Assembly: GCA_021802765.1 (NCBI GenBank)
Contig: JAJZRI010000001.1
Coordinates: forward strand, 211,509 to 275,508
DNA from: Candidatus Micrarchaeota archaeon
GTDB taxonomy: Archaea; Micrarchaeota; Micrarchaeia; Micrarchaeales; CABMGC01
DNA length: 64,000 nucleotides
Reading direction: 5' to 3'
This document shows, one piece after another, positions 2,982 through 44,298 of this stretch; position 1 is the first letter of the stretch, and every line of letters begins with the position of its first letter. Made by a program: the position numbers and the translations under genes. A model generated the notes under the pieces. The model did not search any database and was not told the DNA's origin. It saw only the letters and a program-made list of their open reading frames with translations.

Positions 2982-4043
2982 ATGAGAGTAATAATGCTAA
3001 TAGACATGGACTACTTCTACGTGGCATGCGAAGAGCTAAGGAATAAGGAGGTTGGTGCGCGTCCAACAATAGTCGGATCTGATCCAAAGCAAGGTGCTGG
3101 AAGGGGCGTTGTAATGACCTGCAACTATGCAGCTAGGAAATTCGGGATACACAGCGGCATGCCTATATCGATGGCTTATAGACTAAAGCCTGACGCCCTC
3201 TATCTTCCGCTGGACTACGAGTATTACGAATCAATATCTAGAAGGATAATGGGGAGGATAGAGGAATTCGCAGATAAGTTCGAGCAGGTCAGCATAGATG
3301 AGGCATTCATAGACGTCTCTGAGAAGATACGAAGTTATGGAAAGGCAATGGAGTATGCCGAGGAGATAAGAAGAGACATACTTGAGAGCGTTGGAATAAA
3401 ATGCTCGATAGGTATCGGCCCAAACAAGCTCATCGCCAAGATGGCCTGCGAGAGGTCAAAGCCCAACGGAGTCATGGCGGTTGGTGGGGGTGAGGTGAAA
3501 AGCTTTCTTTTAGAATCAAAGATAGAGGATCTCTACGGCATAGGCGCAAAGACTGCCGAGAGGCTAAAGAAGCTCGGATATGGCACGGTAGAGCAGTTGG
3601 CCAAGGCAGATAGCATGGTTCTTGCGGAGAATTTCGGCGCGCCGTTTGGCGCTGAGCTCAAGGCATTTGCAAGCGGGATTGACGAGCGCGAAGTGGTGGG
3701 CAATTACGACATAAAGTCAATAAGCAGGGAATTCACATTCGAAAAAGACACCAAGAATTCTCAGGAGATAAAGGAGGCTATAGGAAGGCTTAGCAAAGAG
3801 GTCGCAAAAGACGTTGAGAAGAACCAGGTCGCATTCAAGACAATAACGCTTAAGCTCAGGTACTTTGACTTCTCAGAGCATTTGCACAGCAGAAGCGTGA
3901 AGGCAACTAGCAGCCTTGAAACAGTGATAAGAACCGCATGCGGGCTCTATGACGATAACGTCGAAAAGAACAAGGATGTTAGAAAGATAGGCGTAAGAGT
4001 CTCGGGGCTTGTCAGCTACAAAGGCCAGAAGAGATTTGCGTGA
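2982..4043 (+). CDS. dinB: Y-family DNA polymerase IV (DinB/Dbh)
   Basis: IDMDYFY, NYAARKFGI, SIDEAF, SIGIGPNKLIAKMA, little-finger VRKIGV. Confidence 0.95.
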   Translation: MRVIMLIDMDYFYVACEELRNKEVGARPTIVGSDPKQGAGRGVVMTCNYAARKFGIHSGMPISMAYRLKPDALYLPLDYEYYESISRRIMGRIEEFADKFEQVSIDEAFIDVSEKIRSYGKAMEYAEEIRRDILESVGIKCSIGIGPNKLIAKMACERSKPNGVMAVGGGEVKSFLLESKIEDLYGIGAKTAERLKKLGYGTVEQLAKADSMVLAENFGAPFGAELKAFASGIDEREVVGNYDIKSISREFTFEKDTKNSQEIKEAIGRLSKEVAKDVEKNQVAFKTITLKLRYFDFSEHLHSRSVKATSSLETVIRTACGLYDDNVEKNKDVRKIGVRVSGLVSYKGQKRFA

Positions 4044-4045
4044 CT

Positions 4046-4249
4046 CTACTGGCGCCTTGCGGCCTTGAGATCGAAGTATTTCTTTAAAGCGTATGCTGAT
4101 CCTAGGATTCCGACCGGCCCTAGAGCGACGGCGGTTGCCTGCAAAGCAAGAAGCGCAGAGTTGCCAGTTATGGCCTCTGCGACGACCGAACCTACAACTG
4201 CCGCAGCTGCAAGATTCCTCCCCAGATGACCCTTTGTCCTTCCCTCCAT
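4046..4249 (-). CDS. Small hydrophobic hypothetical protein
   Basis: 67-aa ORF filling the gap, GTGA SD-like element upstream, two hydrophobic segments. Confidence 0.5.
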   Translation of the reverse strand: MEGRTKGHLGRNLAAAAVVGSVVAEAITGNSALLALQATAVALGPVGILGSAYALKKYFDLKAARRQ

Positions 4250-4343
4250 ATCACTTTACCCTGATAGTACTTGGACGGGAAGCCTTATAAAAAGATTATA
4301 CAAGAATCTGTGATTTGTCGATTAGAAGCAAGATATTGCAGCA

Positions 4344-5273
4344 TCATTTTTCACTGCCTAGGCCTGCAAGATACTCCCTTACGGCAAGCGCCGCCTTTAC
4401 GCCGCTTCCGCTAGCCGTTGCCGCCTGCCTAAAGACATGGTCTGCTACGTCGCCCGCAACGAAGACGCCCTCGACGTTAGTGTAGACCTCATCCCTTGCG
4501 GGGACTATATACCTCTTTTCATCGAGCGTTATCTGCCCGGCGAAGATCTCGGTGTTTGGGGAGTAGCCTATCGCCACGAAGACCCCATCGGTCTTCATCT
4601 CCTGCACCTGACCTGTGGCGACGTTCTTTAGCGCCACTGATCCGACAGACTTGTCGCCCCTTATCTCCTCTATCACTGTATCAAATACTATCTTTATCTT
4701 TGGATTGGACTTTAGCCTGTCCTGCATTATCTTGCTCGCCCGCAGTGCCGAGCCCCTATGGATTATCGTAACGCTACTTGCAAACCGGGTCAGAAATAGT
4801 GAGTCCTCAGCCGCGGTATCCCCGCCGCCGATTGTCACCACGCCTTTGCCCTTGTAAAATGGGCCGTCACACGTGGCACAGTTTGAAACGCCATGGCCTA
4901 TAAACTTCTTCTCAGAAGGTATGCCGAGCCATTTCGCGTTGGCACCGGTCGCTATTATAACGGCATTGGATTCGTAAGTCTTACCGTCCGCAGTCATCTT
5001 GAAAGGCCTCTTGCTAAAATCCACGGCAGTAGCATTTGAGTCTATGAATCTGGTGCCAAATTTTTCCGCCTGCTTTCTCATCTGAGATATAAGCACCGGA
5101 CCATCTATGCCTTCCGGGAATCCCGGGAAGTTCTCCACCACTGTTGTGAGAAGCAGCTGCCCGCCTGGGCTAAAGCCGCCTATGACCAGGGGCTCAAAGC
5201 CCTCCCTTGAAGCGTATATCGCAGCTGAGAGACCTGCAGGGCCCGATCCGAGTATTATCACTTTTTCTACCAT
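4344..5273 (-). CDS. trxB: Thioredoxin-disulfide reductase
   Basis: GSGPAG, CATCDG redox motif, GGGDTA, AGDV; start placed at MVEKVII. Confidence 0.96.
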   Translation of the reverse strand: MVEKVIILGSGPAGLSAAIYASREGFEPLVIGGFSPGGQLLLTTVVENFPGFPEGIDGPVLISQMRKQAEKFGTRFIDSNATAVDFSKRPFKMTADGKTYESNAVIIATGANAKWLGIPSEKKFIGHGVSNCATCDGPFYKGKGVVTIGGGDTAAEDSLFLTRFASSVTIIHRGSALRASKIMQDRLKSNPKIKIVFDTVIEEIRGDKSVGSVALKNVATGQVQEMKTDGVFVAIGYSPNTEIFAGQITLDEKRYIVPARDEVYTNVEGVFVAGDVADHVFRQAATASGSGVKAALAVREYLAGLGSEK

Positions 5274-32214: not shown

Positions 32215-32421
32215 CAATAATAAACTGCAGACCAAGGTATAAAACAATTCCACAAACCAGATGGAACCAGAAGTCCGATACGTTTTTATGATTTTTATGA
32301 GCCATATTCACTATTTAGGCACTTCGTCGCGACGAACGCCACGTCGCATCAAGTATTTTTCTTCCCAAGTGTACGTTTACTATAGAATCAGCTTAAACCC
32401 TGACGAGGTTAGGGGGATGCT

Positions 32422-32541
32422 CTAGGTATTCATAGCCAGTTTTGCCATGCGGTATCCAAGCGGCATGAAAGGGCAGCGGTGCCCGTGAAATTCCCATGCC
32501 CATTCTGGAAGTCCGCCATATCTGTTTATATCGTTTTTAAT
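32422..32541 (-). pseudogene. FmdE-family N-terminal fragment
   Basis: Hand translation [39 protein letters not shown]; FHGH.CP...G.R signature; GGTGA SD followed by ATT instead of ATG. Confidence 0.7.
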
Positions 32542-32564
32542 GAGTTCACCTTAAGCATATACAA

Positions 32565-33554
32565 TTATGATGCGCCTGCGACGGATCTGCCTTTTTTGGG
32601 ATTAAGCATTTGTTTAAGAGAACCTAACAATACGATTATAAACACGGCAGTTAGGCACACGTATAAAAACAATGAAATCGTTTTGAATGGGCTGAAGAAA
32701 TCAGACAAAGAGGCCGTGCCCAAAGTGAATGCTGCTGTGGGGAATACGTAACTCCACCAGCCTAGGTTAAATTGAAAACCGGACTTGAGATATCTCCTAA
32801 AGAAAAGCAGGTTGACCCCTATGGCCCAAATTCCGAATCCCCACAAAGCCGCTCCACCTAAGGCCCCCAACGGGCTCAGGTTCATTTTAAGCAGGATTCC
32901 TGCGGAATTGGAGATTTTCATAAAGTCAACGATCAAAATCCCTATCGGGGCTAAAAGAATGTAATTCGTAGGCGCAAGTTCTACAGTGGGCAACGTATGG
33001 CTGACTAACCGGAAAAAGAGCATGCCAAGGATTAACAGGAAAAGCATAGTACCAATGCCAAAGAAAAAGAGTGCGAATACCATAGTGACTGCGCTAACAG
33101 GGTACAGGAGCACCGCATTGGTGACAAGAATAGTGGCTACTGGCGTGATAAACCATCCGCCATGCATCTGGTCTAACTTAATCTTGATATTTGAAAAAAA
33201 GTGGTATGGCAGATAGATTGCAAGAGCAAGGATTAAGCCTGCGCCATAAACAAGCAAACCCAGATCTATGAAGCTAGGTATAATGTTCCAGCATAAGATC
33301 GCCAAGATTACTGCAGAAATGGGTTGAAGGGCATAGAAGTTTCACAGCAATGTGTGCTTCAGCTCAGTTTTGACGATTCCAGGATGAAGAACAAGCTTTA
33401 CAAGTAATATCGCAGAAAATAACAAGAAGAAAAATACCAAAACCCAGGTTAAAGGAATTACCAGGAATGGAAGGAAGGTCTTTGATGCCAATGCGAATCC
33501 TCCTGTTCCAAGGATTGAGCCAAAAGCCATTATAGAGAATTTACTGGTATCCAT
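32565..33554 (-). pseudogene. TDT (TehA/SLAC1/Ssu1) family transporter with one in-frame TGA
   Basis: MAFGSILGTGG...ELKHTLL-TGA(33342-33344)-NFYALQP continues in frame into HGGWFITPV...WWSYVFPT. Confidence 0.85.
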
Positions 33555-33576
33555 AATACAAACCTTATTGTATGGT

Positions 33577-33840
33577 TTAAACCCTTTTTCCAAACAGTCT
33601 AAGTACGTGCCTGTCACTTATCTTGTAAATCACCTTTTTTCCTTCCCTTCTGTTTGAGAGTATACCCGCATTTGCAAGGTACTTAAGCTGCAGTGAAACG
33701 GTGGGCTGCGCCCTGCTTACAAGCTTAGGCAGTTCGCATGCACATCTTTCCTGCTTGACCAATTTCGATACAATGTTGTACCTCGTCTTGTCCCCAAGCG
33801 CCTTGAAAAGCACGTAATTGTGCTGTTGTTTAGCGTTCAT
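33577..33840 (-). CDS. ArsR/SmtB family regulator
   Basis: FKALGD.TR..I, ERCACEL, QPTVS.QL..L, RREGK...Y. Confidence 0.92.
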   Translation of the reverse strand: MNAKQQHNYVLFKALGDKTRYNIVSKLVKQERCACELPKLVSRAQPTVSLQLKYLANAGILSNRREGKKVIYKISDRHVLRLFGKRV

Positions 33841-33900
33841 AAATATATTTATAAGCATAAATATATATAAATTTTGTGTCTATACCTATGCGGTGAACGT

Positions 33901-34254
33901 ATGAGTGGAAAAATAGCAATAATCATAGCTTCAGATTGGGATCAAAAGCTCAAAGTGACCTCGGGTCTTCATCTTGCTAAGCGCATATATGATGCGAGAC
34001 AGGAAAACGGCATAGATGCATTAGAGGTATTCCTTTATGCAGGTGGCTCAAAGCTACTGCAATCCTTGCCAGAAGGCTTCGTAAATATACTGGAAGAGCT
34101 AAAGCAGGGCAACATCCTTGTAAAGGTATGTACGACGGAGGCACGGGCGTGGAATCTTGAGGAAAGCGCAAAGAAATATGATATAGTCCTAGAATTTGCG
34201 AGAGACGCATTCTCAAGATACGCAAGGGATGGATTTACTGTTTTAACCTTTTGA
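33901..34254 (+). CDS. DsrE/DsrF-like protein
   Basis: Short alpha/beta protein: KIAIII, EVFLYAGG, KVC, C-terminal GFTVLTF. Confidence 0.7.
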   Translation: MSGKIAIIIASDWDQKLKVTSGLHLAKRIYDARQENGIDALEVFLYAGGSKLLQSLPEGFVNILEELKQGNILVKVCTTEARAWNLEESAKKYDIVLEFARDAFSRYARDGFTVLTF

Positions 34255-34271
34255 AACCATGAAGGCATGGC

Positions 34272-34511
34272 GTGGTTCCTAGGAGACCTGTTGGTGAAGT
34301 AGCCAGAAACCAACTTTCAGACCAATTGAAGAAGCTCTCAGCAATGGGCGGCACTGTTAAGAGTCTCGGAAAAATAGGACTTTTACCAAAAGAGGATCAG
34401 GTTATAGAACATTATGACAACGCTATCACTGACTTTGTAAATGGTAAGCCTGACGAAGAATCCGGTAGGCTGATTTTCAAGTGGTTAAAAAGATGTAATG
34501 AGGCCATTTAA
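34272..34511 (+). CDS. Small hypothetical protein or gene remnant
   Basis: 79-aa ORF with GTG start, no motif. Confidence 0.3.
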   Translation: MVPRRPVGEVARNQLSDQLKKLSAMGGTVKSLGKIGLLPKEDQVIEHYDNAITDFVNGKPDEESGRLIFKWLKRCNEAI

Positions 34512-34643
34512 TAGCGCCCATACGAATATAACCTGAAGCGCATCGCCCGATGCGGGGATCGAACCTGCGACATCCTGGTTAACAGCCAGGCGCTCTACCG
34601 ACAAGCAAGCCTTTTCATAACGAGCTTTTGCCTTGGCAACCAT
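34485..34643 (-). CDS. Integrase N-terminal fragment int(N)
   Basis: ATG 34643: MVAKAKARYEKACLS then reads through att as VERLAVNQDVAGSIPASGD, the same frame as int(C). Confidence 0.75.
   Translation of the reverse strand: MVAKAKARYEKACLSVERLAVNQDVAGSIPASGDALQVIFVWALLNGLITSF
34541..34599 (-). repeat. att site (partial tRNA-Asn copy)
   Basis: CATCGCCCGATGCGGGGATCGAACCTGCGACATCCTGGTTAACAGCCAGGCGCTCTACC, identical to 43538-43596. Confidence 0.97.
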
Positions 34644-34699
34644 GCAATCGAACCCTTGTTTTCAAAAGAAAATACGCAATTTAGATATAAATATGCGTG

Positions 34700-35030
34700 A
34701 GGTTCGATTTGATGCGGATAAACGAACCCCGACTTTAGCCAAACTTGTGTCTTTAGCCGATTCCCACGAAATGGCTAAAGAAAGATGACGACGAAGCTCA
34801 AAAACCCTGTGTTTTTGTCGGGAGGCTTCTTTACACAAGTTTCGCGTACGGCTCAGCATCAAGCCCGCTACGGCCGCTTCGCGGCCTACCGGCCATAGGC
34901 CTGCGGGCACTACTCCAAAATCGGGTTCTAGGCCACTTTTGGGTGGGGGCAAAAGTGGCCGCTTGAAGAAAAGGTACCTTAAACTGCTCGGTGGCGAGCT
35001 TGAAGGCGCATTGGCGCCGCACGCCCCTCT
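34700..35030. other. GC-rich, palindrome-dense non-coding region (origin candidate)
   Basis: GGCCACTTTTG-8 nt-CAAAAGTGGCC (34931-34960), CTTTAGCC..GGCTAAAG (34751-34780), GGTTCG..CGAACC, clustered GGCC. Confidence 0.5.
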
Positions 35031-35059
35031 GGCCGCATGGCCGAGCTGGGCGAAAGGAA

Positions 35060-35269
35060 TTATTTGTTTAACGGTTTAATAATCACTTTTACGGATTTAC
35101 CAACCAAGCCTTCTAGCAAGGAACTGCGTATATTTATACCGCCGTACGTATACTTGTGTTCTCCGGATTCCCTACGTCGAATATTACCTCCTTTGAGTTG
35201 CCTTTTGTATGTGAACTCAGTTACATTTACCGGATAAAATTCGAACTCATCTTTTTGGTATCTTGCCAT
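35060..35269 (-). CDS. Small basic hypothetical protein of the element
   Basis: 69-aa ATG ORF divergent from the cargo operon. Confidence 0.6.
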   Translation of the reverse strand: MARYQKDEFEFYPVNVTEFTYKRQLKGGNIRRRESGEHKYTYGGINIRSSLLEGLVGKSVKVIIKPLNK

Positions 35270-35372
35270 ATTATCCCTATTCTATAGGGCGACGTAGTTT
35301 TAAAAACTATTCGGACTAGTTTTTTTAAGAGGATTTTTTCGTACAAAAGATTTAATAAGGGTCACGGAGTAG

Positions 35373-35732
35373 GTGTTAATAGGGATGGTTATGGAATTAA
35401 TAAAACAGCCGGGGTCGCAGGAGGATTTAGTTGCAAGTTTATTGGTAGGCATTTCAGATGGATGGAAGATTGGTGAAGTTGCGACTAGCACTTATAGAAG
35501 ATTGCCCGATCCGCAGCCAGTATATATAGACTCATCAAATATGAGGCGCATGCATCATGGAGAAGCAGGCATGTGGATCGTGACAGCCAGCACTTTGCTT
35601 GGTCTTGTTGCATATAGTTATGCAGATGGGCAGGATAAGGAAATGGCGATGCAGATTGCAGGAATGGGTATTGGATTTGGTGCACAGTTGATCTGGGATG
35701 ATAAAGAAGACCATAACGAATGGTTCCATTAA
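35373..35732 (+). CDS. Membrane protein with HHG and G.G..L..DD motifs
   Basis: RMHHGEAG-TM, GMGIGFGAQLIWDD. Confidence 0.65.
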   Translation: MLIGMVMELIKQPGSQEDLVASLLVGISDGWKIGEVATSTYRRLPDPQPVYIDSSNMRRMHHGEAGMWIVTASTLLGLVAYSYADGQDKEMAMQIAGMGIGFGAQLIWDDKEDHNEWFH

Positions 35733-35767
35733 TTGGTGATAGAATTCCTAAATATAATATAATTTCT

Positions 35768-36118
35768 ATGGGGGAAATGGCGCGCATAGGAGAGTGGGTA
35801 GAGGTATTCAGAGCGCTAATTGCACTTGGTATTCTTGGTTATGTAGCAGTTACAATATCAAGTGTCATACCTATTGGGCCATTCTTGCAGATATTGCCTT
35901 TGTTCTATTTTGCTATAACTGTTGCTATAGTGATTGGAGTACTGGAGGTGCCTGATCATGGAACATTGTTTACAATTGGGTGGACTTTTGCCTCTTTGCT
36001 GCTAGCCGGATCTGGACTTATAAGCAGATGGGAGGCACTATTGGATCTTGTTCCGATAGCCTTAATTATATGGAATTATTTAGATGATTCGGGTGGATTG
36101 AATGGTACATACCTCTAG
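35768..36118 (+). CDS. Four-TM membrane protein
   Basis: Almost entirely hydrophobic; overlaps next gene. Confidence 0.65.
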   Translation: MGEMARIGEWVEVFRALIALGILGYVAVTISSVIPIGPFLQILPLFYFAITVAIVIGVLEVPDHGTLFTIGWTFASLLLAGSGLISRWEALLDLVPIALIIWNYLDDSGGLNGTYL

Positions 36119-36671
36119 ATGTTCGCGTGCTAGCAGCACGCATTGTAGTTGCTCGTGCGGCGGTGCGGCCCATGGTGGGGGTGGAGGGATAGTATCAATT
36201 GCTGAGGCATCGAGTGATAGAGACGTACCAGAATATAGGAAATTCTTTGGTAATTCTCTTGTTCAAGCAGCATTGACACATGCTTGCATGGCTGGACTGA
36301 CAGTAGTTGCGCCTGGTGCAGGGTTGGCGCTGGCTACTGCATATACAACATACAACTACTCAAACTTGGGATACACCATGTTTAAGGCATATAATGAATT
36401 CCAAAATGGAAACGTTGCCCAGCGCAGAGATTCATTAAGGACTATAACTACAAACGTAACAAGTTTTGCGGTGGGAGATAGTTCGGATAAGGCTGCAGCT
36501 TACATAGTTGACAAAGCCAAGGCTAGCGGATATGTAAAGGAATTAGCTGGGAAAAGTGGGGTGGAAGAAGTCATCCTAACAGACATGTTGGAAGGAACAA
36601 CCTCACAGGCAATAAATAATGGTTTCACAGAACTGGCCAGATTTGGTGCAGGTAAGGTGTTTGGTGCTTGA
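36102..36671 (+). CDS. Hypothetical protein with N-terminal Cys/His metal-binding motif
   Basis: HTSRCSRASSTHCSCSCGGAAHG followed by a hydrophobic Gly/Ala segment. Confidence 0.7.
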   Translation: MVHTSRCSRASSTHCSCSCGGAAHGGGGGIVSIAEASSDRDVPEYRKFFGNSLVQAALTHACMAGLTVVAPGAGLALATAYTTYNYSNLGYTMFKAYNEFQNGNVAQRRDSLRTITTNVTSFAVGDSSDKAAAYIVDKAKASGYVKELAGKSGVEEVILTDMLEGTTSQAINNGFTELARFGAGKVFGA

Positions 36672-36962
36672 ATGGATGAAAAAACTTTTCAAATCATAGG
36701 AATAATAGCGGCTCGTAAGGGCGCTTACTATACGCTAGTTAGAAATGAATTTCTTAGGCAGTTAAAGAAGCAGAAGAAGGCGATTAGTGATGATGAGGAT
36801 CAGGAAATGCGGGCGCGTTTGAGAAGGGCCATAGCACAATTACCTAATGAGTTATTCTTAGGCGTACAGGAAACAAGCAATATAGATAGGAGCCTCGGCC
36901 TAGATCAAATAAGGCTTGATACAAAAAGGATAGCCAAGGAAATAATCACAGGACTCATTTAG
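36672..36962 (+). CDS. Small helical hypothetical protein
   Basis: ATG directly after the previous stop codon. Confidence 0.65.
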   Translation: MDEKTFQIIGIIAARKGAYYTLVRNEFLRQLKKQKKAISDDEDQEMRARLRRAIAQLPNELFLGVQETSNIDRSLGLDQIRLDTKRIAKEIITGLI

Positions 36963-37003
36963 ATTACAGTTAGGGTAAAATAGCTTATCATTTAAATGGA
37001 ATC

Positions 37004-38716
37004 ATGGGTTTTTTAGGGGAAGGGATACATAGTAATGCCGTGAGCAAGGTTGCTGCCTACCAAATACCACTCATAAGTAATGCTAGAATGCCACTTGTCC
37101 GAAAAAGATGCGGCGTTCTGATTAAGTCCGCTATCAAAATACCTGACTATCTAAAGAAAAAACCAAACCAAAACCTGCTTATATGCGGAACCACTGGGCA
37201 GGGCAAGTCCAAGCTAATGCGGCTTGCTCTTGAGATAATGCCCAACCCTAAAACAATCTTCTCGTACAAGGAGAACGACGAATACCTACAAATTGAGGGC
37301 AACTTCATAGCCGCTGAGCGCAGCTTGCCAAACCCATTCAATGACCCGGAGGCCTTTACTGATGCCTTCGCTGTGGCCTTCAACCTCCAATCTGAGGGGA
37401 TACAGGCCTCTACGGCCATGTCCCTTGTAAGCAGCCTAGCCAAGGAGAGCAGGACTTGGGCTGATTTCATATCCAACGCCAAAAAGCACGCCGCGAAGGC
37501 TCGAGACGCAAACGTACGCTCTGCCACAAACTACCTGCTCGAGAAGATTAAGGCGCTTACCTACGACTCCAAGCAGATAGAGCTCGACCTTGGCAAGACC
37601 AACGTGCTCGACATGAGCCTGCTCAACGATGACGCCAAGACCTTCTACTCCGAGCTCTTCCTCAGGCAGATATACGCCGGCTTGAAGCGCCGCAGGGGCG
37701 CCGATAAGGTCATCGTGTGCGTGGACGAGGCCCATAGGCTTACTAGGAACGTCCAGAGCAAGCGCCAGAGCATAATCAACGAGATGAGCAGGGAGATAAG
37801 GGCTTTTGGGATGCTCTGGACGGCTACGCAGAACCTCTCCGACATACCCGACCCGCTTAGGAACCAGTTTGCCACCCAGTTCCTGTTCAGCACCACATCC
37901 GAAGGGGACATGCGGGCGCTTGGGCAGATAGACAGGGACTTGGCTAGGTGCGTATCCGAGCTTAGGAACCACGAGTTTGTTGATGCAAAGCATGAGGACG
38001 TGCACAAGTCCATTGGAATATTTAGGGCAGACATAAGCTCGCTGAAAGAGCGGGACCTTAGCAGTTTAAGGCCTGCTGAAACGGTGCAGGCCAAACCAGT
38101 AACATTAGAGGTGCCAGAAGGAAGGCCAACAACCATGCTACACGCAGCAATGTTAGCAGTATATGAGAATCCAGGAGCTGGACTTGGGAAGATAGCTAAA
38201 TACCTTAAAACTAAGGGTTGGATAACAAGCGATCCTACAATTTACGGCTCTAAAGATAGGAAGGGTGTGCTTGACAATCTGGTAAGCTTAGGTTACGCAA
38301 AGGTAGATGGCTCGGGCTACAAGCTGACCGAAAAGGCATTGTGGTGGATTGATGCAGAGATACTTGTAAAGCGTGCTAAGAACGTTGGTTCTGAACTGCA
38401 CATGCAGCTTATGAGAAAAACGGTAGAAAAACTACACGAAGAGAATATGCTTGTTGTAATACCGGAGAGAAAAGATGTGCCAGATTTGATAGCTTACCCC
38501 ATGTCTAAAGGAAACAAGAAGTACCTTTGGGATGACAAGAATAGAAAGGCTTATGAAATACAGACTACGGCTAGAAAGAACAATGTGCTTGTCAATAAGA
38601 AAAGAAATGATAGATTTAAACTATCTACAACTTGGATTGCGCACGATGAAGACATGCTTGAAGAAATAGAGAGGTTGACAGAAGGAAAAGATAAATATAT
38701 GCTGATTATGGTGTGA
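37004..38716 (+). CDS. HerA/VirB4-like ATPase fused to wHTH-like and PD-(D/E)XK-like domains
   Basis: NLLICGTTGQGKS, CVDEAHRL, REIRAFG, ATQN; C-terminal SELH...PDLIA...AYEIQT. Confidence 0.8.
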   Translation: MGFLGEGIHSNAVSKVAAYQIPLISNARMPLVRKRCGVLIKSAIKIPDYLKKKPNQNLLICGTTGQGKSKLMRLALEIMPNPKTIFSYKENDEYLQIEGNFIAAERSLPNPFNDPEAFTDAFAVAFNLQSEGIQASTAMSLVSSLAKESRTWADFISNAKKHAAKARDANVRSATNYLLEKIKALTYDSKQIELDLGKTNVLDMSLLNDDAKTFYSELFLRQIYAGLKRRRGADKVIVCVDEAHRLTRNVQSKRQSIINEMSREIRAFGMLWTATQNLSDIPDPLRNQFATQFLFSTTSEGDMRALGQIDRDLARCVSELRNHEFVDAKHEDVHKSIGIFRADISSLKERDLSSLRPAETVQAKPVTLEVPEGRPTTMLHAAMLAVYENPGAGLGKIAKYLKTKGWITSDPTIYGSKDRKGVLDNLVSLGYAKVDGSGYKLTEKALWWIDAEILVKRAKNVGSELHMQLMRKTVEKLHEENMLVVIPERKDVPDLIAYPMSKGNKKYLWDDKNRKAYEIQTTARKNNVLVNKKRNDRFKLSTTWIAHDEDMLEEIERLTEGKDKYMLIMV

Positions 38717-38719
38717 ATT

Positions 38720-39991
38720 ATGGAACTTAACGATAGAGTAAAGGAAACTCTGAAATTACTTGAAGGTCGTATGGGGCAATATTCAAAATGTGAAGCGGCA
38801 TTTTCTATAGCTAAAGTGAATAATGTTAATAAAATACATAATGGGGTAATAGTTTTCTTTCATGAAAAAGACCAGATTCCGAATAAGTCACGTCTCAATT
38901 ATAAAAACTTAATATTAGATCGGCAGATTCTTAGCGCTGATGAAGGAAAGAAAATGATATATGAGCTTATAAATGATAACAAGATTATGTTGCCAGAACT
39001 TGGAGAATTCGCATTAGAAGCAAATAGCGTAGCGGATATGGGTGGGAGAGACTACGAACCGGCCTATCATCCGTGCGGATTTGCATATGATAGATTTGGA
39101 TGGCCAAACAGGCGCATTGAGTATAGTATAAAAACTAATTCAATGTCGTTTGATAATCTAGAAGTTGTTAGTACTAAGAGCCCCCTTTATCTTAATGCAG
39201 CATATGCAATTGCAGATTTCATGAATGCATCTCACCCATATAATCCCGTTACATCGAGAATTGAAATAATAATACCAGATTATAGGGCACGGATAAAGAA
39301 GGCGCGAATATCAGATGGCAAAATAAAGTTTGAGATAGAAGAAAGAGAAACTAGAGAGAGTAATCTCCAATTTAAGTATTTCTTGCAATCTGGTTCTGAA
39401 AGCAGACCTGGAGAAGTAGCTATAGAGAATAATAGTGCAACAACAAGTTACCCTAATGATGTAACACTCTTAGAGGCAGTAATCCTTGACATTTCAAAAG
39501 ACGAGCCCATAGACACCAAATATGTATATCCATTTAGATTGGAATCGTGGCAAGAAGTGGATCCGGAAGCTTATGAGATATTAATAGACAGATTAATTAA
39601 GGATGGCGAAAATGATAAAGTAGAATTTAAGAGGGAAATTAAAGATACTGGTGAATTCTTAGAGACTGTCTCCTCATTTTCAAACTCTTCTGGAGGAGTT
39701 ATAATATTGGGAATCACTAATAACGGAGAAAAACGAGGTTTTAGAATAAATAAGGATGTTATTACAAATATAATTGCAAGTAATTGTGAGCCTTATCCAA
39801 AATTTGAGATTAAGGAGGTAAAGATAGATACAATAACATTAACTGTTATTGAGATTGATGAAGGGTCTAATAAACCTTATTCTATAAAGGAACGCGGTAT
39901 TTTCATTAGGAAAAATGCCACAGATAGACAGGCAAGTAGGAATGAGTTAGATGACATTATCAAGAATAACAGTTCAAAAGTTGTTATATGA
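38720..39991 (+). CDS. Schlafen/AlbA_2 domain protein
   Basis: C-terminal GENDKVEFKRE, ETVSSFSNSSGGVIILGI, KPY....G.FIR. Confidence 0.85.
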   Translation: MELNDRVKETLKLLEGRMGQYSKCEAAFSIAKVNNVNKIHNGVIVFFHEKDQIPNKSRLNYKNLILDRQILSADEGKKMIYELINDNKIMLPELGEFALEANSVADMGGRDYEPAYHPCGFAYDRFGWPNRRIEYSIKTNSMSFDNLEVVSTKSPLYLNAAYAIADFMNASHPYNPVTSRIEIIIPDYRARIKKARISDGKIKFEIEERETRESNLQFKYFLQSGSESRPGEVAIENNSATTSYPNDVTLLEAVILDISKDEPIDTKYVYPFRLESWQEVDPEAYEILIDRLIKDGENDKVEFKREIKDTGEFLETVSSFSNSSGGVIILGITNNGEKRGFRINKDVITNIIASNCEPYPKFEIKEVKIDTITLTVIEIDEGSNKPYSIKERGIFIRKNATDRQASRNELDDIIKNNSSKVVI

Positions 39992-40410
39992 ACTTTGCAA
40001 ACATTATCGAGGAGGTATTAATTGCTGATTATAAATTAAAGCATAACGATACTGTAAGACAGATAGAAAGCATTTTCAGAAATAATGGTTTCTACACCAC
40101 AAGGGAGTATCCCATTTATAAGATGGGTGATGGCTCTGGAAAGAAAGGAAGGATAGACTTAGTGGCTAGGAAGGGGAGATTCAGGGTGGCAGTAGAGTAT
40201 GACCACCATAAGTTAATAAAATGGAAAAGTTTCCAGAAAATAATCCAAATAAACCCAGAGTGCGCTATTGCAATATCTGGGGATGGAGGTCTTAAAGAAA
40301 ACATAGTAAGGGCATCTCATTATGTAAGAAAACTCAGGCAGCCCCTTTATGTTGTTTCCCTAAAAGAGAAGGCATACACAACGGTAAGAGGCGTGGAGAA
40401 TGACGGATAG
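39988..40410 (+). CDS. PD-(D/E)XK nuclease-like protein
   Basis: REYP...GRIDLVA....VAVEYD. Confidence 0.65.
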   Translation: MNFANIIEEVLIADYKLKHNDTVRQIESIFRNNGFYTTREYPIYKMGDGSGKKGRIDLVARKGRFRVAVEYDHHKLIKWKSFQKIIQINPECAIAISGDGGLKENIVRASHYVRKLRQPLYVVSLKEKAYTTVRGVENDG

Positions 40411-40804
40411 ATTTACGAAGGCACAGAGAAGCTATATCATGTCTAGAATTAAGGGAAAGGGGACGCGCGTAGAGTTGGCAGTAAAGGGAATGCTTGGGGG
40501 ACATTTTACATTCCAGCCCAAGGGCATACTTGGAAACCCTGATTTTGCACATAAGAAAAAGAAAATTGCAATATTTGTTGATGGAGACTTTTGGCATGGT
40601 AAAGAATTTGGGTTGAGACGGAAGAGGTTGCCGAAATATTGGATAGCAAAAATAACAAGAAACATAAGACGGGATCAGGAGGTCAACAAGAAGCTGAAAG
40701 ATGCAGGGTGGAAAGTAGTACGTATCTGGGAAAAGCGGATTGGAAGAGAGCCTAAATTGGTTAAGAGACTCCTAAGAAAGGTTATTAATTTGGAAAGGAA
40801 ATAA
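40400..40804 (+). CDS. vsr: Very short patch repair endonuclease
   Basis: D.FT..QRS.IMSRI, G.PDF, IFVDGDFWHG, W..KI.RN..RD, GWKV.RIWE. Confidence 0.95.
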   Translation: MTDRFTKAQRSYIMSRIKGKGTRVELAVKGMLGGHFTFQPKGILGNPDFAHKKKKIAIFVDGDFWHGKEFGLRRKRLPKYWIAKITRNIRRDQEVNKKLKDAGWKVVRIWEKRIGREPKLVKRLLRKVINLERK

Positions 40805-40810
40805 CCTTTT

Positions 40811-41512
40811 ATGGGAAATAACAAGTATGTTGATTTCGTAGATGATAAATTCTTCTTAGAGTGTGTTAGGGAAGTCTGTGAGGTTTATTATAGGGAGAAA
40901 AAGGAGCTTACTGTAGATAGCCTAAAGGGTAATGGCCTTGACCCTTTTAAAAGCGTGTTTGACATGGCAAATAGGGGCATCAGTTTTGAACAGTGGATGG
41001 AAGAGGAGAGGTCAAGGCAAGAGGATAAGACACTCAATAATAAGATAGGAGAATTCCACCAGAAGCTGCTAGGTGGGGTCAAGGGTTGGACTGACCTTGG
41101 AGTTGGAAATGACACAGAATTGGACCTAAAGAAGGATGATGATACCATATTCATGGAGATAAAGAACAAATATAACACCATCAATAGCGATTCTGGGAAT
41201 AAAGTAAGGGACAAGCTTGGGGATGCGGCAAGGAAGAATCCAAAGGCCATAGTTTATTTTGCATATATCATATCTAAAAAGAATGATTCTGGAGAGAAGG
41301 TATGGAAAAAGAAGGGAAGGGAGACGAATGTTAGGATAAAGAAGATATGGGGATCTAAAGTCTACGCGTTGGTGACGGAGAAGGAAGATGCGCTGAAAAA
41401 GACATGGGAAGCCCTACCCATAGCAATAAACGACTATATGAAAGGAAAGGCAGAAATAAGTGAAGACGACAAAAATAAACTTGTCATGAGCTTTGGCTCT
41501 GTACTTGGGTAA
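40811..41512 (+). CDS. Type II restriction endonuclease, Eco47II family
   Basis: DPFK..FD, RQ.DKT..N.IG.FHQ, D.....EIKNKYNT.NS. Confidence 0.85.
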   Translation: MGNNKYVDFVDDKFFLECVREVCEVYYREKKELTVDSLKGNGLDPFKSVFDMANRGISFEQWMEEERSRQEDKTLNNKIGEFHQKLLGGVKGWTDLGVGNDTELDLKKDDDTIFMEIKNKYNTINSDSGNKVRDKLGDAARKNPKAIVYFAYIISKKNDSGEKVWKKKGRETNVRIKKIWGSKVYALVTEKEDALKKTWEALPIAINDYMKGKAEISEDDKNKLVMSFGSVLG

Positions 41513-42488
41513 CTAACCTTACGGAAAGCGCCTTTACAATCTGATTTCCTATAGCCTTTGCAAAGTTTACAGGCACGGCGTTGCCTATCTGCTTGTATTG
41601 CGATGACATGCCGCCGCAGAATTCCCAGTTGTCAGGGAAGGTCTGTATCCTTGCGTATTCCCTTACCGTGAACGGGCGTGTCTCTTCTGGATGGCAGCGC
41701 TCTGTCTGCTTCTGTGATGGCGATGTCGTAAGCGTCAGGCAAGGCTCATCCCACGAGATCCTTCTAGCCATGCCACGCTTGCCTCCGCCGCTGTAGAAGC
41801 TCTTACCCATGAATTCCTTTTGTATATCAAGTGGGAGGTTTACCCAGCTGCCTCCTGGAGGGACTAGATCAAGCACCTTTTTCCTGTTTTCCGAATACCG
41901 CGTCCCGGAAGACTGTGGCACGTTTGCAAGCGCTTCCTTTAAGGTAACTAGCTTTCCGTATCCGGTAGGGTACTCAAAGTTTATCCCGTCAAGCGTACCT
42001 ATTATGATTATCCTTTTCCTTTTCTGTGGCACGGAATAGTTTACCGCATCCAATATCTTATACTGGACATTATAGCCCAGCGACTTGAAGACATCCAAGA
42101 CTACCGTAAGGGTGCGGCCGTTGTCATGTGTGGCAAGGCCAGCTACATTCTCTGCAATGAACAGCTTTGGCTTGATCTCCTTTACTGCCCTGGCAAACTC
42201 ATAAAATAGCGTGCCGCGCGTATCCTCAAAACCAAGTTTTTTACCGGCATGGCTAAATGCCTGGCATGGGAAGCCACCGCTCACCACATCAGCCTTCATT
42301 CCCGTAAAGTCTATGCCCTTTATGTCACCCAATACCACATTCCAATTAGGCCTATTCTTCCGGAGGGTAGCTGCACAGTCTGCATCAAAATCATTAAGTA
42401 ATATTGCCTCTAGGCCGGCTTCCTCTAGTCCTAGGGCTAACCCACCTGCACCTGCAAATAATTCGACAACTTTAAGCTTATTTTCCAT
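41484..42488 (-). CDS. DNA (cytosine-5)-methyltransferase (Eco47II/Sau96I-like)
   Basis: ELFAGAGG, GGFPCQAFS, ENV, PQKRKR, TRD ARRISWDEPCLTLTTSPSQKQTERCHP, YKQIGNAV. Confidence 0.95.
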   Translation of the reverse strand: MENKLKVVELFAGAGGLALGLEEAGLEAILLNDFDADCAATLRKNRPNWNVVLGDIKGIDFTGMKADVVSGGFPCQAFSHAGKKLGFEDTRGTLFYEFARAVKEIKPKLFIAENVAGLATHDNGRTLTVVLDVFKSLGYNVQYKILDAVNYSVPQKRKRIIIIGTLDGINFEYPTGYGKLVTLKEALANVPQSSGTRYSENRKKVLDLVPPGGSWVNLPLDIQKEFMGKSFYSGGGKRGMARRISWDEPCLTLTTSPSQKQTERCHPEETRPFTVREYARIQTFPDNWEFCGGMSSQYKQIGNAVPVNFAKAIGNQIVKALSVRLVTQVQSQSS

Positions 42489-42647
42489 AGCAAACACCAC
42501 ACTTATGCTACGAGCGCTCCGCTAACAATATTTGGCACCGCAACTCTTATATTACCACCCAGAAACAGAGGCCATTTTGTATAGCGTTGCCCGACGCATT
42601 TTGTATTGTAATTATAGTTCTTTAAAATTAAATATCTTTGCATATTT

Positions 42648-43598
42648 TCACCTTTTGAAACCATTAGACAATGAGCGCAGGTGTGACACCCTATTTTCAG
42701 AGAAGGCGAAATCGATATTCCTGAACAGCTCTTCCTGGTCTTTGCTTATGTAAGTCATGGTTATGTCTGGCCTGGAGTGCCTTGCAAACCTGCTGGCCAG
42801 TACAACGTTGCCGTTTGTGGCCTTGGCAAAGCGTGTTATTGCATAATGGCGCAGGCTATGTGATGTAAGCCTATACAAGCCGCGCTCTTTATGGTCTGAA
42901 TAGGTCTCTTCAGATGTTCCGTACATTTGGTTTAGCCCTGCACTTTGCGCAGATTCACGGAAAACCTTTCTAGCATAGTTGACCTCTACATGCTGTAGCC
43001 TATTGGCATTGTTGTCATGTTCTTTGAAGAAGACATAGCCGTTCGATGCCTTTATTGAGGTCTCATTTTTAGCTATGTACTCTATCGTTTCTTTGAACAG
43101 CGCGACAGGGATGAGCAGGGTATCCATCTTTTTGGCCTTCTCAGTCTCAAGCGTAAGCTCACGCTTATCAAAATCTATGCATGAGATGTGCAATGCGCAC
43201 GCTTCGCCTATCCTTAGGCCTAGATAGGCCTGATACTTGAAAAGCAACCTGAACTTCTCATATGGTACGTTAATTAGGAATTGGCGCAGCTCAAGTTCTG
43301 TAAAACCTTTGTTTATTGATCCGTACTTGGGCGTCTTTCTTCTGCCTTTGAACCTTCTCCCATAGGCCTTATGCAGGATGGACTTCATGTCCTCCAATCG
43401 CTGCTGCGGGGCAGAGTTTGCAAGCGCCTTGAGCTGCGCTGCAAACTGCGCGTAATCGAACCTTGAAATGCTTGTTTCGCTTGCTTTAGGGGAAGGGGTT
43501 TTACCGGAAATGAACCCGATTTTGTCGCCGTAAATTTCATCGCCCGATGCGGGGATCGAACCTGCGACATCCTGGTTAACAGCCAGGCGCTCTACCAC
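42648..43598 (-). CDS. int: Tyrosine recombinase/integrase, C-terminal part int(C)
   Basis: GLRIGE (R), TEKAK (K), HSLRH, ARH, TMTY (Y); 5' end lies inside the att/tRNA. Confidence 0.92.
   Translation of the reverse strand: MVERLAVNQDVAGSIPASGDEIYGDKIGFISGKTPSPKASETSISRFDYAQFAAQLKALANSAPQQRLEDMKSILHKAYGRRFKGRRKTPKYGSINKGFTELELRQFLINVPYEKFRLLFKYQAYLGLRIGEACALHISCIDFDKRELTLETEKAKKMDTLLIPVALFKETIEYIAKNETSIKASNGYVFFKEHDNNANRLQHVEVNYARKVFRESAQSAGLNQMYGTSEETYSDHKERGLYRLTSHSLRHYAITRFAKATNGNVVLASRFARHSRPDITMTYISKDQEELFRNIDFAFSENRVSHLRSLSNGFKR
43538..43596 (-). repeat. att site within intact tRNA-Asn
   Basis: Identical to 34541-34599. Confidence 0.97.
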
Positions 43599-43612
43599 TG
43601 AGCTAATCGGGC
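43541..43612 (-). tRNA. tRNA-Asn(GTT)
   Basis: GCCCGATTAGCTCAGTGGTAGAGCGCCTGGCTGTTAACCAGGATGTCGCAGGTTCGATCCCCGCATCGGGCG; anticodon arm CCTGG-CTGTTAA-CCAGG. Confidence 0.96.
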
Positions 43613-44298
43613 ATTTTGAAGAACGGAAACGGCTCCGCGAGATGTATTATCTTGGCGTACATATATGAATGCTCGCCCATATATTCCGTAAAATCAATTC
43701 GGTTGTCGCTGTATTTATACCTTACGAAGCCTCCGGATTGATTCTTGTCAGGCAATGAATAATAAAGTATCTTATTCTCGTCGGAAAGGCCCTCTATCAC
43801 GTCAAAAGCGCAAAGGACCGCCTTTCCCTTGTAGACAAACGAGTATATTTGAGGTATGGTCTCTGTGCCTGATGCCTGTATGAGCGCGGCCGTAACAAGA
43901 TCGTGAACGCTCGAGAGCTTTGCGATTGAGGGGATTTCCTTGTCCTTGGGCTTTGCATCGGAGATCTTCGCGTCATCTATGCAGATTATGTTGATAGCAT
44001 TGCTGCCTTCCTGCCTCTCGCCAGATACGAAGTGCGAATTCTCCTTCTGCGAAGGGGATGAGGGATAGGTGTAGCCTATTACGCGCTCGCTCTTCGGGTT
44101 TGATACGTAATAGGCAATGGCGCTCTTGCCTATCTCTTCGCCTAGCGCAAATATCCTATATGCTCCGCCAGATTTAAATGATACGAGCTGGGCGTTGGTG
44201 TAGTCGTAATTGCAGACGTATCTGGACAGGTCATCTAGCGATTCGAGCTTTACGAATATAAGGCTCTTTGGACGCAACTGCCGCTTCTTGCTTTTCAT
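43603..44298 (-). CDS. Hypothetical protein (two internal repeat-like halves)
   Basis: 231-aa ORF; KL.S..DL occurs twice; stop codon lies inside the tRNA 5' end. Confidence 0.7.
   Translation of the reverse strand: MKSKKRQLRPKSLIFVKLESLDDLSRYVCNYDYTNAQLVSFKSGGAYRIFALGEEIGKSAIAYYVSNPKSERVIGYTYPSSPSQKENSHFVSGERQEGSNAINIICIDDAKISDAKPKDKEIPSIAKLSSVHDLVTAALIQASGTETIPQIYSFVYKGKAVLCAFDVIEGLSDENKILYYSLPDKNQSGGFVRYKYSDNRIDFTEYMGEHSYMYAKIIHLAEPFPFFKMPD

Follow-up and report, generated by a model that had tools for sequence, protein, structure and literature searches.

An ATPase with fused winged-helix and nuclease-like domains in the backbone of small archaeal integrative elements

Background

What does a row of five tightly packed, unfamiliar genes do in an acid-mine archaeon, and do the five belong together? 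The question is raised by a stretch of 64,000 nucleotides (nt) from a Candidatus Micrarchaeota archaeon (GenBank assembly GCA_021802765.1, contig JAJZRI010000001.1, positions 211,509 to 275,508), which we refer to as the window and whose numbering is used below unless another locus is named. An original prediction, made from the letters alone, had singled out positions 35373-38716 as an uncharacterised module of five genes (here g1 to g5) encoding two membrane proteins, a Cys/His-motif protein, a small helical protein and a fusion of ATPase, winged helix and nuclease, and had proposed either a minimal DNA-transfer machine or an undescribed defence system. The five-gene module is refuted here as a conserved system, and the five genes should not be catalogued as one; they are the left half of an integrative element of 8,997 base pairs (bp), of which the fusion protein g5 is a recurring part. 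The integrative element and the HerA/VirB4-type pump are both known kinds and do not amount to a new category, and the g5 architecture is part of a backbone, recognisable though undescribed, that is found in small integrative elements and plasmids of archaea; open-access papers and preprints yielded no description of either the architecture or the element family.

Such a compact backbone bears on the question of how DNA is exchanged among DPANN archaea and the acidophiles that surround them, and in one such DPANN-acidophile pair islands rich in small membrane proteins have been guessed to be conjugative, according to the available part of the source (PMC5498576). Because the backbone is tied to plasmid pPO1 of a cultivable organism, Picrophilus oshimae, the question can be tested at the bench.

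An integrative element in a tRNA-Asn gene

The region 34541-43613 holds an integrative element that sits in the tRNA-Asn gene of its host. A perfect direct repeat of 59 nt, with the sequence of the 3' part of the tRNA, is found at 34541-34599 and again at 43538-43596, 8997 nt apart; Rfam sees the left copy as a partial tRNA (34552-34606, - strand, 34.2 bits), and the right copy belongs to the intact tRNA-Asn(GTT), which is abutted by a tyrosine integrase gene. The original prediction had suspected a mobile-DNA context, and repeat, tRNA and integrase make that context real, although the tRNA-integrated element itself had been missed. Between its ends the element carries, in order, a non-coding stretch, a divergent open reading frame (ORF) of 69 residues (g0), g1 to g4, g5, a gene with an AlbA_2 domain (g6), g7, genes for Vsr, an Eco47II-type enzyme and a C-5 methyltransferase, and the integrase, with attR inside the tRNA (Table 1). 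The integrase ORF as listed extends into the tRNA and its actual start is probably further in; the longest integrase ORF starts within the tRNA or att repeat in several elements (at 43598 in the window, and in loci L001, L005 and L056).

In the assembly graph of run X1, possibly the source sample, the element forms a single unitig of 8,998 nt that covers exactly 34570-43567. In a contig from a ~93%-identical relative (runs X1 and X7), no more than 34-35 other letters stand between position 34031 and the tRNA, and the element is absent; this may be the unoccupied site of a sibling lineage, a reading of moderate reliability (sides of 44 letters in X1 and 28 in X7). Element unitigs in runs X3 and X4 have a depth of ~8 against 15-17 for the flanks, or about half, which would fit a polymorphic insertion, a fit on which we do not lean since the tool flags contig depth as no measure. 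One candidate joint, 34575 to 43572, was discarded because its short side of 24 letters lies wholly inside the repeat.

Table 1. Features of the tRNA-Asn element, in window coordinates
Feature	Coordinates	Strand	Remarks
attL	34541-34599		left element end; copy of the tRNA-Asn 3' part
Conserved non-coding stretch	34685-35065		just inside attL
g0, 69 residues	35060-35269	-	divergent from the array; coding-like codon score 0.049
g1, 119 residues	35373-35732	+	weakly hydrophobic; variable accessory gene
g2, 132 residues	35720-36118	+	multi-pass membrane protein; sporadic accessory gene
g3, up to 189 residues	36102-36671	+	orphan; actual start maybe near 36288
g4, 96 residues	36672-36962	+	soluble
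g5, 570 residues	37004-38716	+	ATPase, winged helix and restriction-endonuclease-like domain
g5 residues 1-359	37004-38080	+	HerA/VirB4/TrwB/DndH-like P-loop ATPase domain
g5 residues ~375-460	38126-38383	+	winged helix-turn-helix; MarR-type regulators, SSV1 F-93 and STIV F93 at Z 5-6
g5 residues 464-570	38393-38716	+	restriction-endonuclease-like (PD-(D/E)xK) domain
g6, 423 residues	38720-39991	+	cargo; C-terminal Schlafen/AlbA_2 domain (PF04326, E 1e-20)
g7, 140 residues	39988-40410	+	conserved partner of the ATPase in its clade
Vsr mismatch endonuclease	40400-40804	+	cargo; PF03852, E 1e-18
Eco47II-type restriction endonuclease	40811-41512	+	cargo; PF09553, E 1.9e-51
C-5 cytosine DNA methyltransferase (Dcm)	41484-42500	-	cargo; PF00145, E 3.3e-87
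Tyrosine integrase	42648-43598	-	PF00589, 54.4 bits against a cut-off of 27.1; XerA-like, E 1.1e-11
attR in intact tRNA-Asn(GTT)	43538-43613	-	right element end; tRNA itself 43540-43613

The five genes are not a unit

All five ORFs exist where they had been described, tightly packed and co-oriented on the + strand, and by a codon-usage log-ratio trained on 26 long window ORFs each scores as coding in the frame given, the two alternative frames being negative (0.07-0.15 per codon for g1 to g4; 0.086 for the Vsr gene, given for comparison). Their border, on the other hand, does not hold: the array runs on unbroken through four further + genes (g6, g7, Vsr and Eco47II-type) to 41512, and since the tight packing continues through all of them the cut at 38716 is arbitrary, g1 to g5 being merely the first five of nine co-directional genes inside the element.

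Nor do the genes keep company elsewhere. Within 201 genomes of the order, g1 was found in two (its own genome and one degraded copy with stops), g4 in two (its own and a weak match, E 5e-4, within a 359-residue frame) and g2 in five, where it adjoins an ATPase gene in a single case (L006 in genome G125; E 1.8e-31, 47% identity) and otherwise has further small membrane ORFs, or the remnant of a tRNA, for neighbours. Among the candidates scored from a collection of 5.8 billion proteins g3 matched itself alone, and it occurs in one of 401 genomes of the phylum. We also compiled 55 loci that encode relatives of the g5 ATPase, 49 from a pattern scan of one genome per species (they lie in Micrarchaeota, Thermoplasmata and Nitrososphaerota) and six from a metagenome scan. 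Each protein of the element was used as a query against their ORFs, which a custom script had called: g1, g3 and g4 are in none of these loci and g2 is in one, so that the supposed module does not recur in them. Even the closest relatives with complete upstream sequence (L001, with 73% ATPase identity, and L051 and L052, with 68%) have unrelated genes there, and L001, which shares tRNA-Asn and a ribosomal-protein flank with the window, has minus-strand genes upstream of its ATPase. Two of these, in L001:498-2390, are paralogues of 174 and 193 residues that lie within direct repeats of 102-205 nt, accompanied by a 79-residue gene.

A recurring backbone

Relatives of the ATPase numbered 116 at E <= 0.001 among 7,996 scored candidates. 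In 16 of the loci (L001-L009, L018, L051-L056), which we treat as the clade of the window, the ATPase aligns through its C-terminal domain. The ATPase gene is followed by g7 in 12 of the 16, and three of the four exceptions end <=764 nt from the ATPase, which leaves L007 as the one locus truly without g7; the integrase family stands beside the ATPase in ten, g2 is present in one (L006), and g1, g3, g4 and the 69-residue ORF are present in none. The recurring backbone therefore consists of a hairpin-bearing non-coding stretch, g5, g7 and the tyrosine integrase, and the other genes are exchangeable. At its most compact it is reduced to a 105-residue two-helix ORF, ATPase, g7 and integrase set against a tRNA-Arg gene (L005), or to ATPase, g7 and integrase (L056).

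Repeats derived from tRNA genes flank five of the eight related loci examined: 30 nt of tRNA-Lys at a spacing of 7,896 in L052, 77 nt of tRNA-Ser at 7,111 in L004, 53 nt of tRNA-Asn at 8,919 in L009, 43 nt of tRNA-Asp at 11,832 in L018, and 38 nt at 13,287 in L008, where the tRNA was not called. Direct repeats were not found for L001, L005 and L051, of which the first and last are perhaps cut or decayed. The ATPase gene is frameshifted in L018 (9680-11881), L008 (9776-11534) and L053 (645-2414), and g7 is split in L001 (4815-5356), which suggests elements in decay, as would be expected. Matches to the ATPase at E <= 1e-20 occur in 34 of 401 sampled genomes of the phylum and in 16 of 188 high-quality ones; they are concentrated in two families (15/82 and 16/94), and the window genome has one copy.

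By nhmmer, counterparts of the non-coding stretch exist in L052, L051, L004 and L018 (E 2.9e-9 to 2.6e-4), in every matching locus at most a few hundred nt from the left repeat or tRNA fragment. The hairpins to which the original prediction had pointed (34700-35030) fall inside it, and one of them, at 34931-34960 (GGCCACTTTTG / CAAAAGTGGCC), is kept in all five aligned sequences, with changes on both sides of the stem in L004. Repeats of eight letters within 34500-35400 were listed, without a test against chance. Candidate roles for the stretch are attP arm or int promoter (both in a circular form), origin, transfer site and RNA.

The second protein of the backbone, g7, is more conserved than the ATPase: relatives with 53-74% identity fall in at least 325 clusters, all unnamed, from Micrarchaeota, Parvarchaeota and Nitrososphaeria records, and H19, E40, D57, E70, D72, H73, K78 and K80 are invariant. 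Hints of a PD-(D/E)xK relationship are weak (Cas4 at E 0.02-0.09; Atlas PDDEXK clusters at 0.85), and on these sequence grounds g7 is possibly a nuclease. Searching the Protein Data Bank (PDB) by sequence returned nothing significant for the g7 profile; the profile shows no similarity to the nuclease-like domain of g5 (hhalign probability 0.2%), and no relationship to the ORF that follows the ATPase in pPO1 was detected (0.3%). A predicted complex of g5 with g7 scored 0.00, which is evidence neither way.

Domain architecture of g5

It had been claimed that g5 fuses an ATPase, a winged helix and a nuclease bearing H...PD...ExQ residues, and this is borne out by invariant motifs, by models and by structural matches. 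Models were made of the full protein (37-row alignment; mean predicted local distance difference test, pLDDT, of 86.7) and of its last 205 residues alone (42 rows; pLDDT 94.7). In the first domain the Walker A residues G62, G65, G67, K68 and S69 and the Walker B pair D241-E242 are invariant across 37 sequences, and the modelled fold of residues ~9-350 is closest (structural Z from VIA) to the DndH C-domain at 25.3 and to a Thermoanaerobacter VirB4 at 24.9 (root-mean-square deviation, rmsd, of 2.8 over 296 residues), followed by HerA at 22-23, TrwB at 21.5, the anti-phage HerA complexes at 20-23, TdpA at 19, STIV B204 at 16 and FtsK at 15; Foldseek matches the motor to HerA at E 3.5e-11. Judged by motifs and modelled fold, g5 is a member of the HerA/FtsK/VirB4 superfamily of P-loop pumps. 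Curated sequence models capture it poorly. The one Pfam model that g5 reaches is the generic AAA_22 (27.5 against a cut-off of 27), and it stays below cut-off for DUF87 (19.0 against 23.2), AAA_10 (21.4 against 27.5) and FtsK_SpoIIIE (16 against 24), as it does in NCBIfam for CedB (32.5 against 700), VirB4_plasma (29.4 against 590) and TraC (29.1 against 567).

A disordered linker (residues 359-367) leads from the motor to the winged helix, whose structural matches cover residues 5-93 of the C-terminal model. The last domain, for which the original prediction had made a PD-(D/E)XK fold a critical expectation, is confidently modelled as one, with the topology helix-strand-strand-strand-helix-strand (H464-479, E483-485, E495-498, E515-519, H525-537, E541-546). 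H466 lies on the first helix, D494 at the second strand and E518-x-Q520 on the third, and H466, D494 and E518 are invariant in 42 sequences. The best structural matches are AF1548 (Z 6.9, rmsd 2.7, 94 aligned residues) and the NucS C-domain (Z 6.6), with Can2, PaqCI, VRR_NUC and BspD6I also among them; Foldseek by itself gave weak FokI and Hjc rows for the C-terminal part. Among 1.84 billion proteins the C-terminal profile finds 262 cluster representatives at E <= 0.001, and because nearly all of its full matches are the ends of proteins of 560-760 residues, the pair of winged helix and nuclease-like domain belongs to the g5 ATPase family. Sequence searches of the PDB gave nothing significant for g5 (best E 0.044) or for the C-terminal profile.

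Relationship to plasmid pPO1

In tblastn searches of plasmid records g5 matches pPO1 of P. oshimae (NC_016049, 7,646 bp) with 36% identity over residues 55-340 (E 6e-49), and the C-terminus of the 658-residue pPO1 ORF1 matches the domain profile at E 2.2e-39. By its similarity over both the ATPase and the C-terminal domain, g5 is a member of the pPO1 ORF1 family. The plasmid has six ORFs, among them ORF1, a methyltransferase, a serine resolvase and Cdc6; its authors annotated ORF1 as COG0433, "FtsK-related", and assigned replication to the Cdc6 gene (PMC3177234), and the C-terminal domains went unnoticed there. ORF1 and g5 share the full architecture (P-loop, winged helix and H/D/ExE domain), and both reside on a small element with a methyltransferase and a recombinase. 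The two elements differ in that pPO1 exists free, as a theta-type plasmid, has Cdc6 and a serine resolvase, lacks g7, a tyrosine integrase and a tRNA att site, and encodes an ORF1 with two N-terminal hydrophobic, presumed membrane, helices.

As judged from gene content and similarity, the g5 family marks pPO1-like integrated plasmids in Thermoplasmata and integrated elements in Nitrososphaerota. Integrated plasmids of the pPO1 type account for 21 Thermoplasmata loci, and their genes keep one order: integrase (429 residues), three small genes, a 134-residue membrane protein with 4-5 helices, the ATPase, two small membrane genes on the opposite strand, ParA, a small gene, resolvase, Cdc6 and methyltransferase, with Cdc6 and resolvase 42% and 58% identical, respectively, to those of pPO1. 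The ATPase keeps its place relative to integrase, ParA, resolvase and the Cdc6 homologue in 16-22 Thermoplasmata loci. Replication, partition, resolution and integration are thus already covered in these plasmid-like relatives by recognisable genes, and it is the ATPase and its membrane neighbours that are left to explain.

In a tree of the family the window protein falls in a separate Micrarchaeota clade (support 100) and the Nitrososphaerota proteins fall in a third one, and branches within the Thermoplasmata clade are very short across several families, which points to its recent horizontal spread. Near-identical ATPases occur across several families in the Thermoplasmata loci L024-L045 (for example L034:8000-13000), and one Thermoplasmata bin has up to four copies (L025, L028, L041, L044). 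One ATPase that nests inside the Thermoplasmata clade is on a 7,304-bp contig binned as Micrarchaeota (L024), by mis-binning or by transfer from host to symbiont; as a contig of 7.3 kilobases (kb) may be mis-binned, we do not read it as transfer.

Most members of the family appear to be anchored in the membrane. At least one strongly hydrophobic segment precedes Walker A in 103 of 143 full-length proteins, and at least two do in 91, and for Thermoplasmata ATPases that lack the segment the gene of the 134-residue protein, with 4-5 transmembrane helices, lies directly upstream in 16 loci. No relationship of the window protein g2 to that protein was detected (hhalign 0.2%), nor of g2 or the 134-residue protein to the N-terminal membrane part of the anchored ATPases (0.3% and 1.8%). 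The genes g1 to g4 are counted among the exchangeable ones, outside the recurring backbone.

What might g5 do?

The reading that we put first, and hold tentatively, is that g5 is the element's DNA-processing and DNA-moving protein for transfer. We put it first because a membrane-tethered pump with a sequence-reading domain is the design of coupling proteins and TraB, because PD-(D/E)XK enzymes serve as MOB_C relaxases, and because NCBIfam models lean the same way, all of them far below their cut-offs (Mycoplasma integrative and conjugative element, ICE, VirB4 in 32 of 37 members, TraC in 19, CedB in 15 and CedD in six). A hexameric motor resembling HerA, VirB4 and coupling proteins would be guided to the element by the winged helix, the PD-(D/E)xK domain would nick or cut the excised circle, and the motor would then export the DNA, or pump it through a contact between two cells, as TraB does or as a coupling protein might with a MOB_C-type relaxase. 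In most family members about two N-terminal helices would tether the motor to the membrane; the window subclade lacks them, and their place may, though need not, be taken by small membrane proteins such as g2. In such a scheme g7 would act as an accessory nuclease-like partner. If g5 does move DNA, then of the archaeal transfer systems described it would be the simplest.

Several known systems lend parts of this picture. With VirB4, CedB and TrwB the g5 family shares the modelled ATPase fold, the best NCBIfam matches (CedB, Mycoplasma-ICE VirB4 and TraC) and a motor that is mostly membrane-tethered or preceded by a small membrane protein; it differs in scoring far below the curated cut-offs, in being much shorter than VirB4, and in its fused winged helix and nuclease, which did not turn up in those families in the material examined. 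Pfam and NCBIfam scans recognised no other type IV or Ced component in the element, although membrane partners such as VirB3/VirB6 or CedA/A1/A2 are short and so easily missed by sequence. The accessible part of PMC12857230 describes Streptomyces TraB as a lone membrane-anchored hexameric pump for double-stranded DNA, guided by repeats through a C-terminal winged helix, that occurs on integrative elements and small plasmids, where variable spd genes for small membrane proteins are transcribed together with it. Its logic, one anchored pump with a C-terminal winged helix on a small element, would be that of the g5 family too, although TraB belongs to the FtsK/SpoIIIE clade (FtsK at Z 15 to g5) and has no nuclease, a clt-like repeat array is not demonstrated in the window, and a membrane anchor, present in the 103 of 143 family proteins mentioned, is not in the window g5. 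The same partly available source (PMC12857230) describes MOB_C relaxases (pAD1 TraX, CloDF13 MobC; Replic_Relax) as PD-(D/E)XK enzymes without a HUH motif. These place a DNA-binding domain before the catalytic one, as g5 appears to, and act on the mobile element's own DNA; in g5 the domain is fused to a motor and nicking is predicted only.

A number of observations weigh against transfer. The ATPase domain is equally close to defence ATPases (the PADLOC mad8 model matches 37/37 members, and DndH at Z 25.3 is tied with VirB4 at 24.9), and defence-type cargo adjoins it in the element. Membrane helices are absent from the window g5 and its four nearest relatives, upstream of whose genes no membrane partner is conserved, and the circular junction was not seen in the contigs searched, which were contigs and not reads. 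The structural matches of the nuclease-like domain are moderate (Z < 8, a range that the tool calls common), and the usual catalytic Lys is Q520 in the window clade and Glu in other clades, with K525 five residues on, which leaves nuclease activity a prediction. Active enzymes with Gln or Glu at the Lys position of the (D/E)xK motif do exist, namely BglII and BamHI. The link to Replic_Relax relaxases drawn in the original prediction finds no support in sequence, as PF13814 matches none of the 42 C-terminal domains at E <= 10, nor whole g5 (0.1), nor anything in the whole genome (E <= 10), a genome-wide search that had no positive control, the control genomes having given nothing above cut-off. 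For ORF1 of pPO1 the published annotation goes no further than FtsK-related (PMC3177234).

A bolder version of the transfer reading, which we consider improbable, makes g5 a one-protein machine, combining a pump like VirB4 or a coupling protein, winged-helix targeting and an endonuclease-type "relaxase", that would suffice with the integrase and g7 to move elements of 4-13 kb between cells. Were it true, such a machine would suit wall-less Thermoplasmatales and the DPANN cells attached to them, and would explain why the g5 family is found in both.

The strongest competitor, to our minds unlikely but in need of serious weighing, is that g5 with g7 is a HerA-type ATPase-nuclease module for defence or exclusion carried on the element, comparable to DUF4297-HerA, SIR2-HerA, DndFGH or MAD7-MAD8. 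The motor would load on foreign DNA, perhaps DNA without the element's methylation, and the fused PD-(D/E)xK domain would degrade it, so that the host is protected or competing elements are excluded and the element is stabilised. A HerA-like motor with a nuclease is common to g5 and to the defence systems DUF4297-HerA, SIR2-HerA, DndH, TdpAB and MAD7-MAD8, at Z 19-25 (DndH-C 25.3, HerA of the anti-phage complexes 20-23, TdpA 19), and besides mad8 (best E 1.3e-13) the PADLOC HerA models match 21 and 14 of the 37 members and HerA_antiphage matches 12. Methyltransferases are frequent neighbours (cluster C5 in 14 loci, pPO1, and Dcm in the window), and MAD7-MAD8 is presented in the available part of PMC13662399 as the ATPase-nuclease branch of a methylation-associated system; defence-type genes (AlbA_2, Vsr, Eco47II) are inserted beside the ATPase, and the window ATPase has no membrane helix. 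Constancy speaks against defence: the g5 gene persists whatever the integrase family, the replication genes and the cargo of the element, while the known defence genes around it vary, and its family supplies one of only six ORFs in pPO1. The nuclease of g5, moreover, is fused after a winged helix, and 72% of the family (103/143) carries N-terminal hydrophobic helices, which the soluble HerA defence partners found by structural matching can do without. Further components of MADS, Dnd or SIR2 systems were not recognised, and PADLOC returned nothing for the neighbours, mad8 being its sole model and g5 its sole protein (E 2.9e-7). If g5 does defend, it would add to the HerA-nuclease theme a new, fused form carried on plasmids.

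It is decidedly improbable that g5 serves maintenance, be it as a nuclease-primed replication initiator or helicase acting on the element once it is excised as a circle, or as a partner of the integrase or resolvase whose recombination it would, like FtsK, direct or resolve. No replication gene is recognisable in the Micrarchaeota elements, their minimal forms being a small transmembrane ORF, ATPase, g7 and integrase, and recombinases are regular neighbours (integrase families C2 or C11 in 28 of the 49 genome loci and in the window; a resolvase in pPO1). A winged helix beside a motor also recalls the gamma domain of FtsK, which controls Xer recombinases. Yet Cdc6 and ParA are already present in pPO1 and the Thermoplasmata elements, the membrane anchoring of most members would be odd for a replicative helicase, the structural match to FtsK (Z 15) is weaker than those to VirB4, HerA and TrwB, and single-stranded replication intermediates were not found by the pPO1 authors (PMC3177234).

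That the element is a small provirus, with g5 as an FtsK/HerA-type packaging ATPase and g1 to g3 as membrane virion proteins, is very improbable, for despite matches to PHROG 2666 (terminase large subunit, E 5.7e-8), PHROG 7035 (E 1.1e-10), the STIV B204 packaging ATPase (Z 16) and, in BFVD, packaging ATPases of membrane-containing viruses, and despite a suggestion in the available part of PMC4158269 that HerA-like ATPases of archaeal dark-matter islands are viral, no capsid, spike or other virion gene was recognised in the element, no relative of the ATPase was found in 50,697 phage records (tblastn) or in IMG/VR (with the ATPase alone or the family alignment), the small genes are not conserved, the family is present on a free plasmid, and packaging ATPases are shorter proteins that have neither the winged helix nor the nuclease.

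As a whole the window element resembles cryptic integrated elements of Thaumarchaeota (PMC6563490) and the islands of Mia14 and Cuniculiplasma (PMC5498576, PMC4158269), which, in the parts of these papers available, are likewise small and tRNA-targeting and carry, besides an integrase, cargo for restriction-modification and numerous small membrane ORFs. Among the commonest genes of the "dark matter" islands, HerA-like ATPases (arCOG00280) are listed there (PMC5498576, PMC4158269); neither the g5 architecture nor a backbone of ATPase, g7 and integrase is described in those same parts.

Cargo, accessory genes and flanks

The interval between the ATPase and g7 (38716-39988 in the window) is an insertion spot for varied cargo. 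A relative of g6 at the same position was found only in L055 (943-2235); L003 has an unrelated 432-residue gene there (3551-4849), and L009 (11579-12216) and L054 have two small membrane ORFs. Downstream of g7 the genes for Vsr, the Eco47II-type enzyme and the C-5 methyltransferase make up a complete cytosine-methylation cassette (40400-42500), and the related element in L003 also has Vsr and a C-5 methyltransferase.

The small genes g1 to g4 have no usable match to a family in Pfam, NCBIfam or PHROG, short membrane proteins being hard to detect by sequence, and g0 has neither a family match nor a relative in the 55 ATPase loci. Hydrophobicity was taken as Kyte-Doolittle means over 19 residues, computed with a custom script and not with a dedicated transmembrane predictor. 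Of the two membrane proteins originally claimed, g2 is clearly multi-pass (up to 2.3), while g1, in which the described motifs HHG and GMGIGFGAQLIWDD are indeed present, is weakly hydrophobic (maximum 1.28); a single segment, at 1.62, occurs in g3, and g4 is without one. The Cys/His motif of g3 is likewise present in the ORF, but it lies in the first 29 codons, which have 61% G+C and score as non-coding (-0.33, against +0.17 in the remainder), and as the frame offers a TTG and an ATG further on, at about 36273 and 36288, the motif may be untranslated, upstream of the actual start.

The stretch from 32430 to 34540, between a P-type ATPase gene and attL, holds a transporter-like membrane gene (32565-33305, - strand), an ArsR-like gene (33577-33858, - strand), a 126-residue gene (33874-34254) and a 79-residue ORF, the last two without a Pfam match; these labels come from reading the sequences only. 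L001 carries different genes between its counterpart of 32261-32425 and its ATPase, and the sibling lineage lacks 34032-34540; the stretch may be the remnant of an older insertion. Elsewhere in the window genome a second, weak match to the ATPase profile (contig C8:19568-19804, locus L059; E 1.2e-6), within a 436-residue frame, is probably a cellular P-loop protein.

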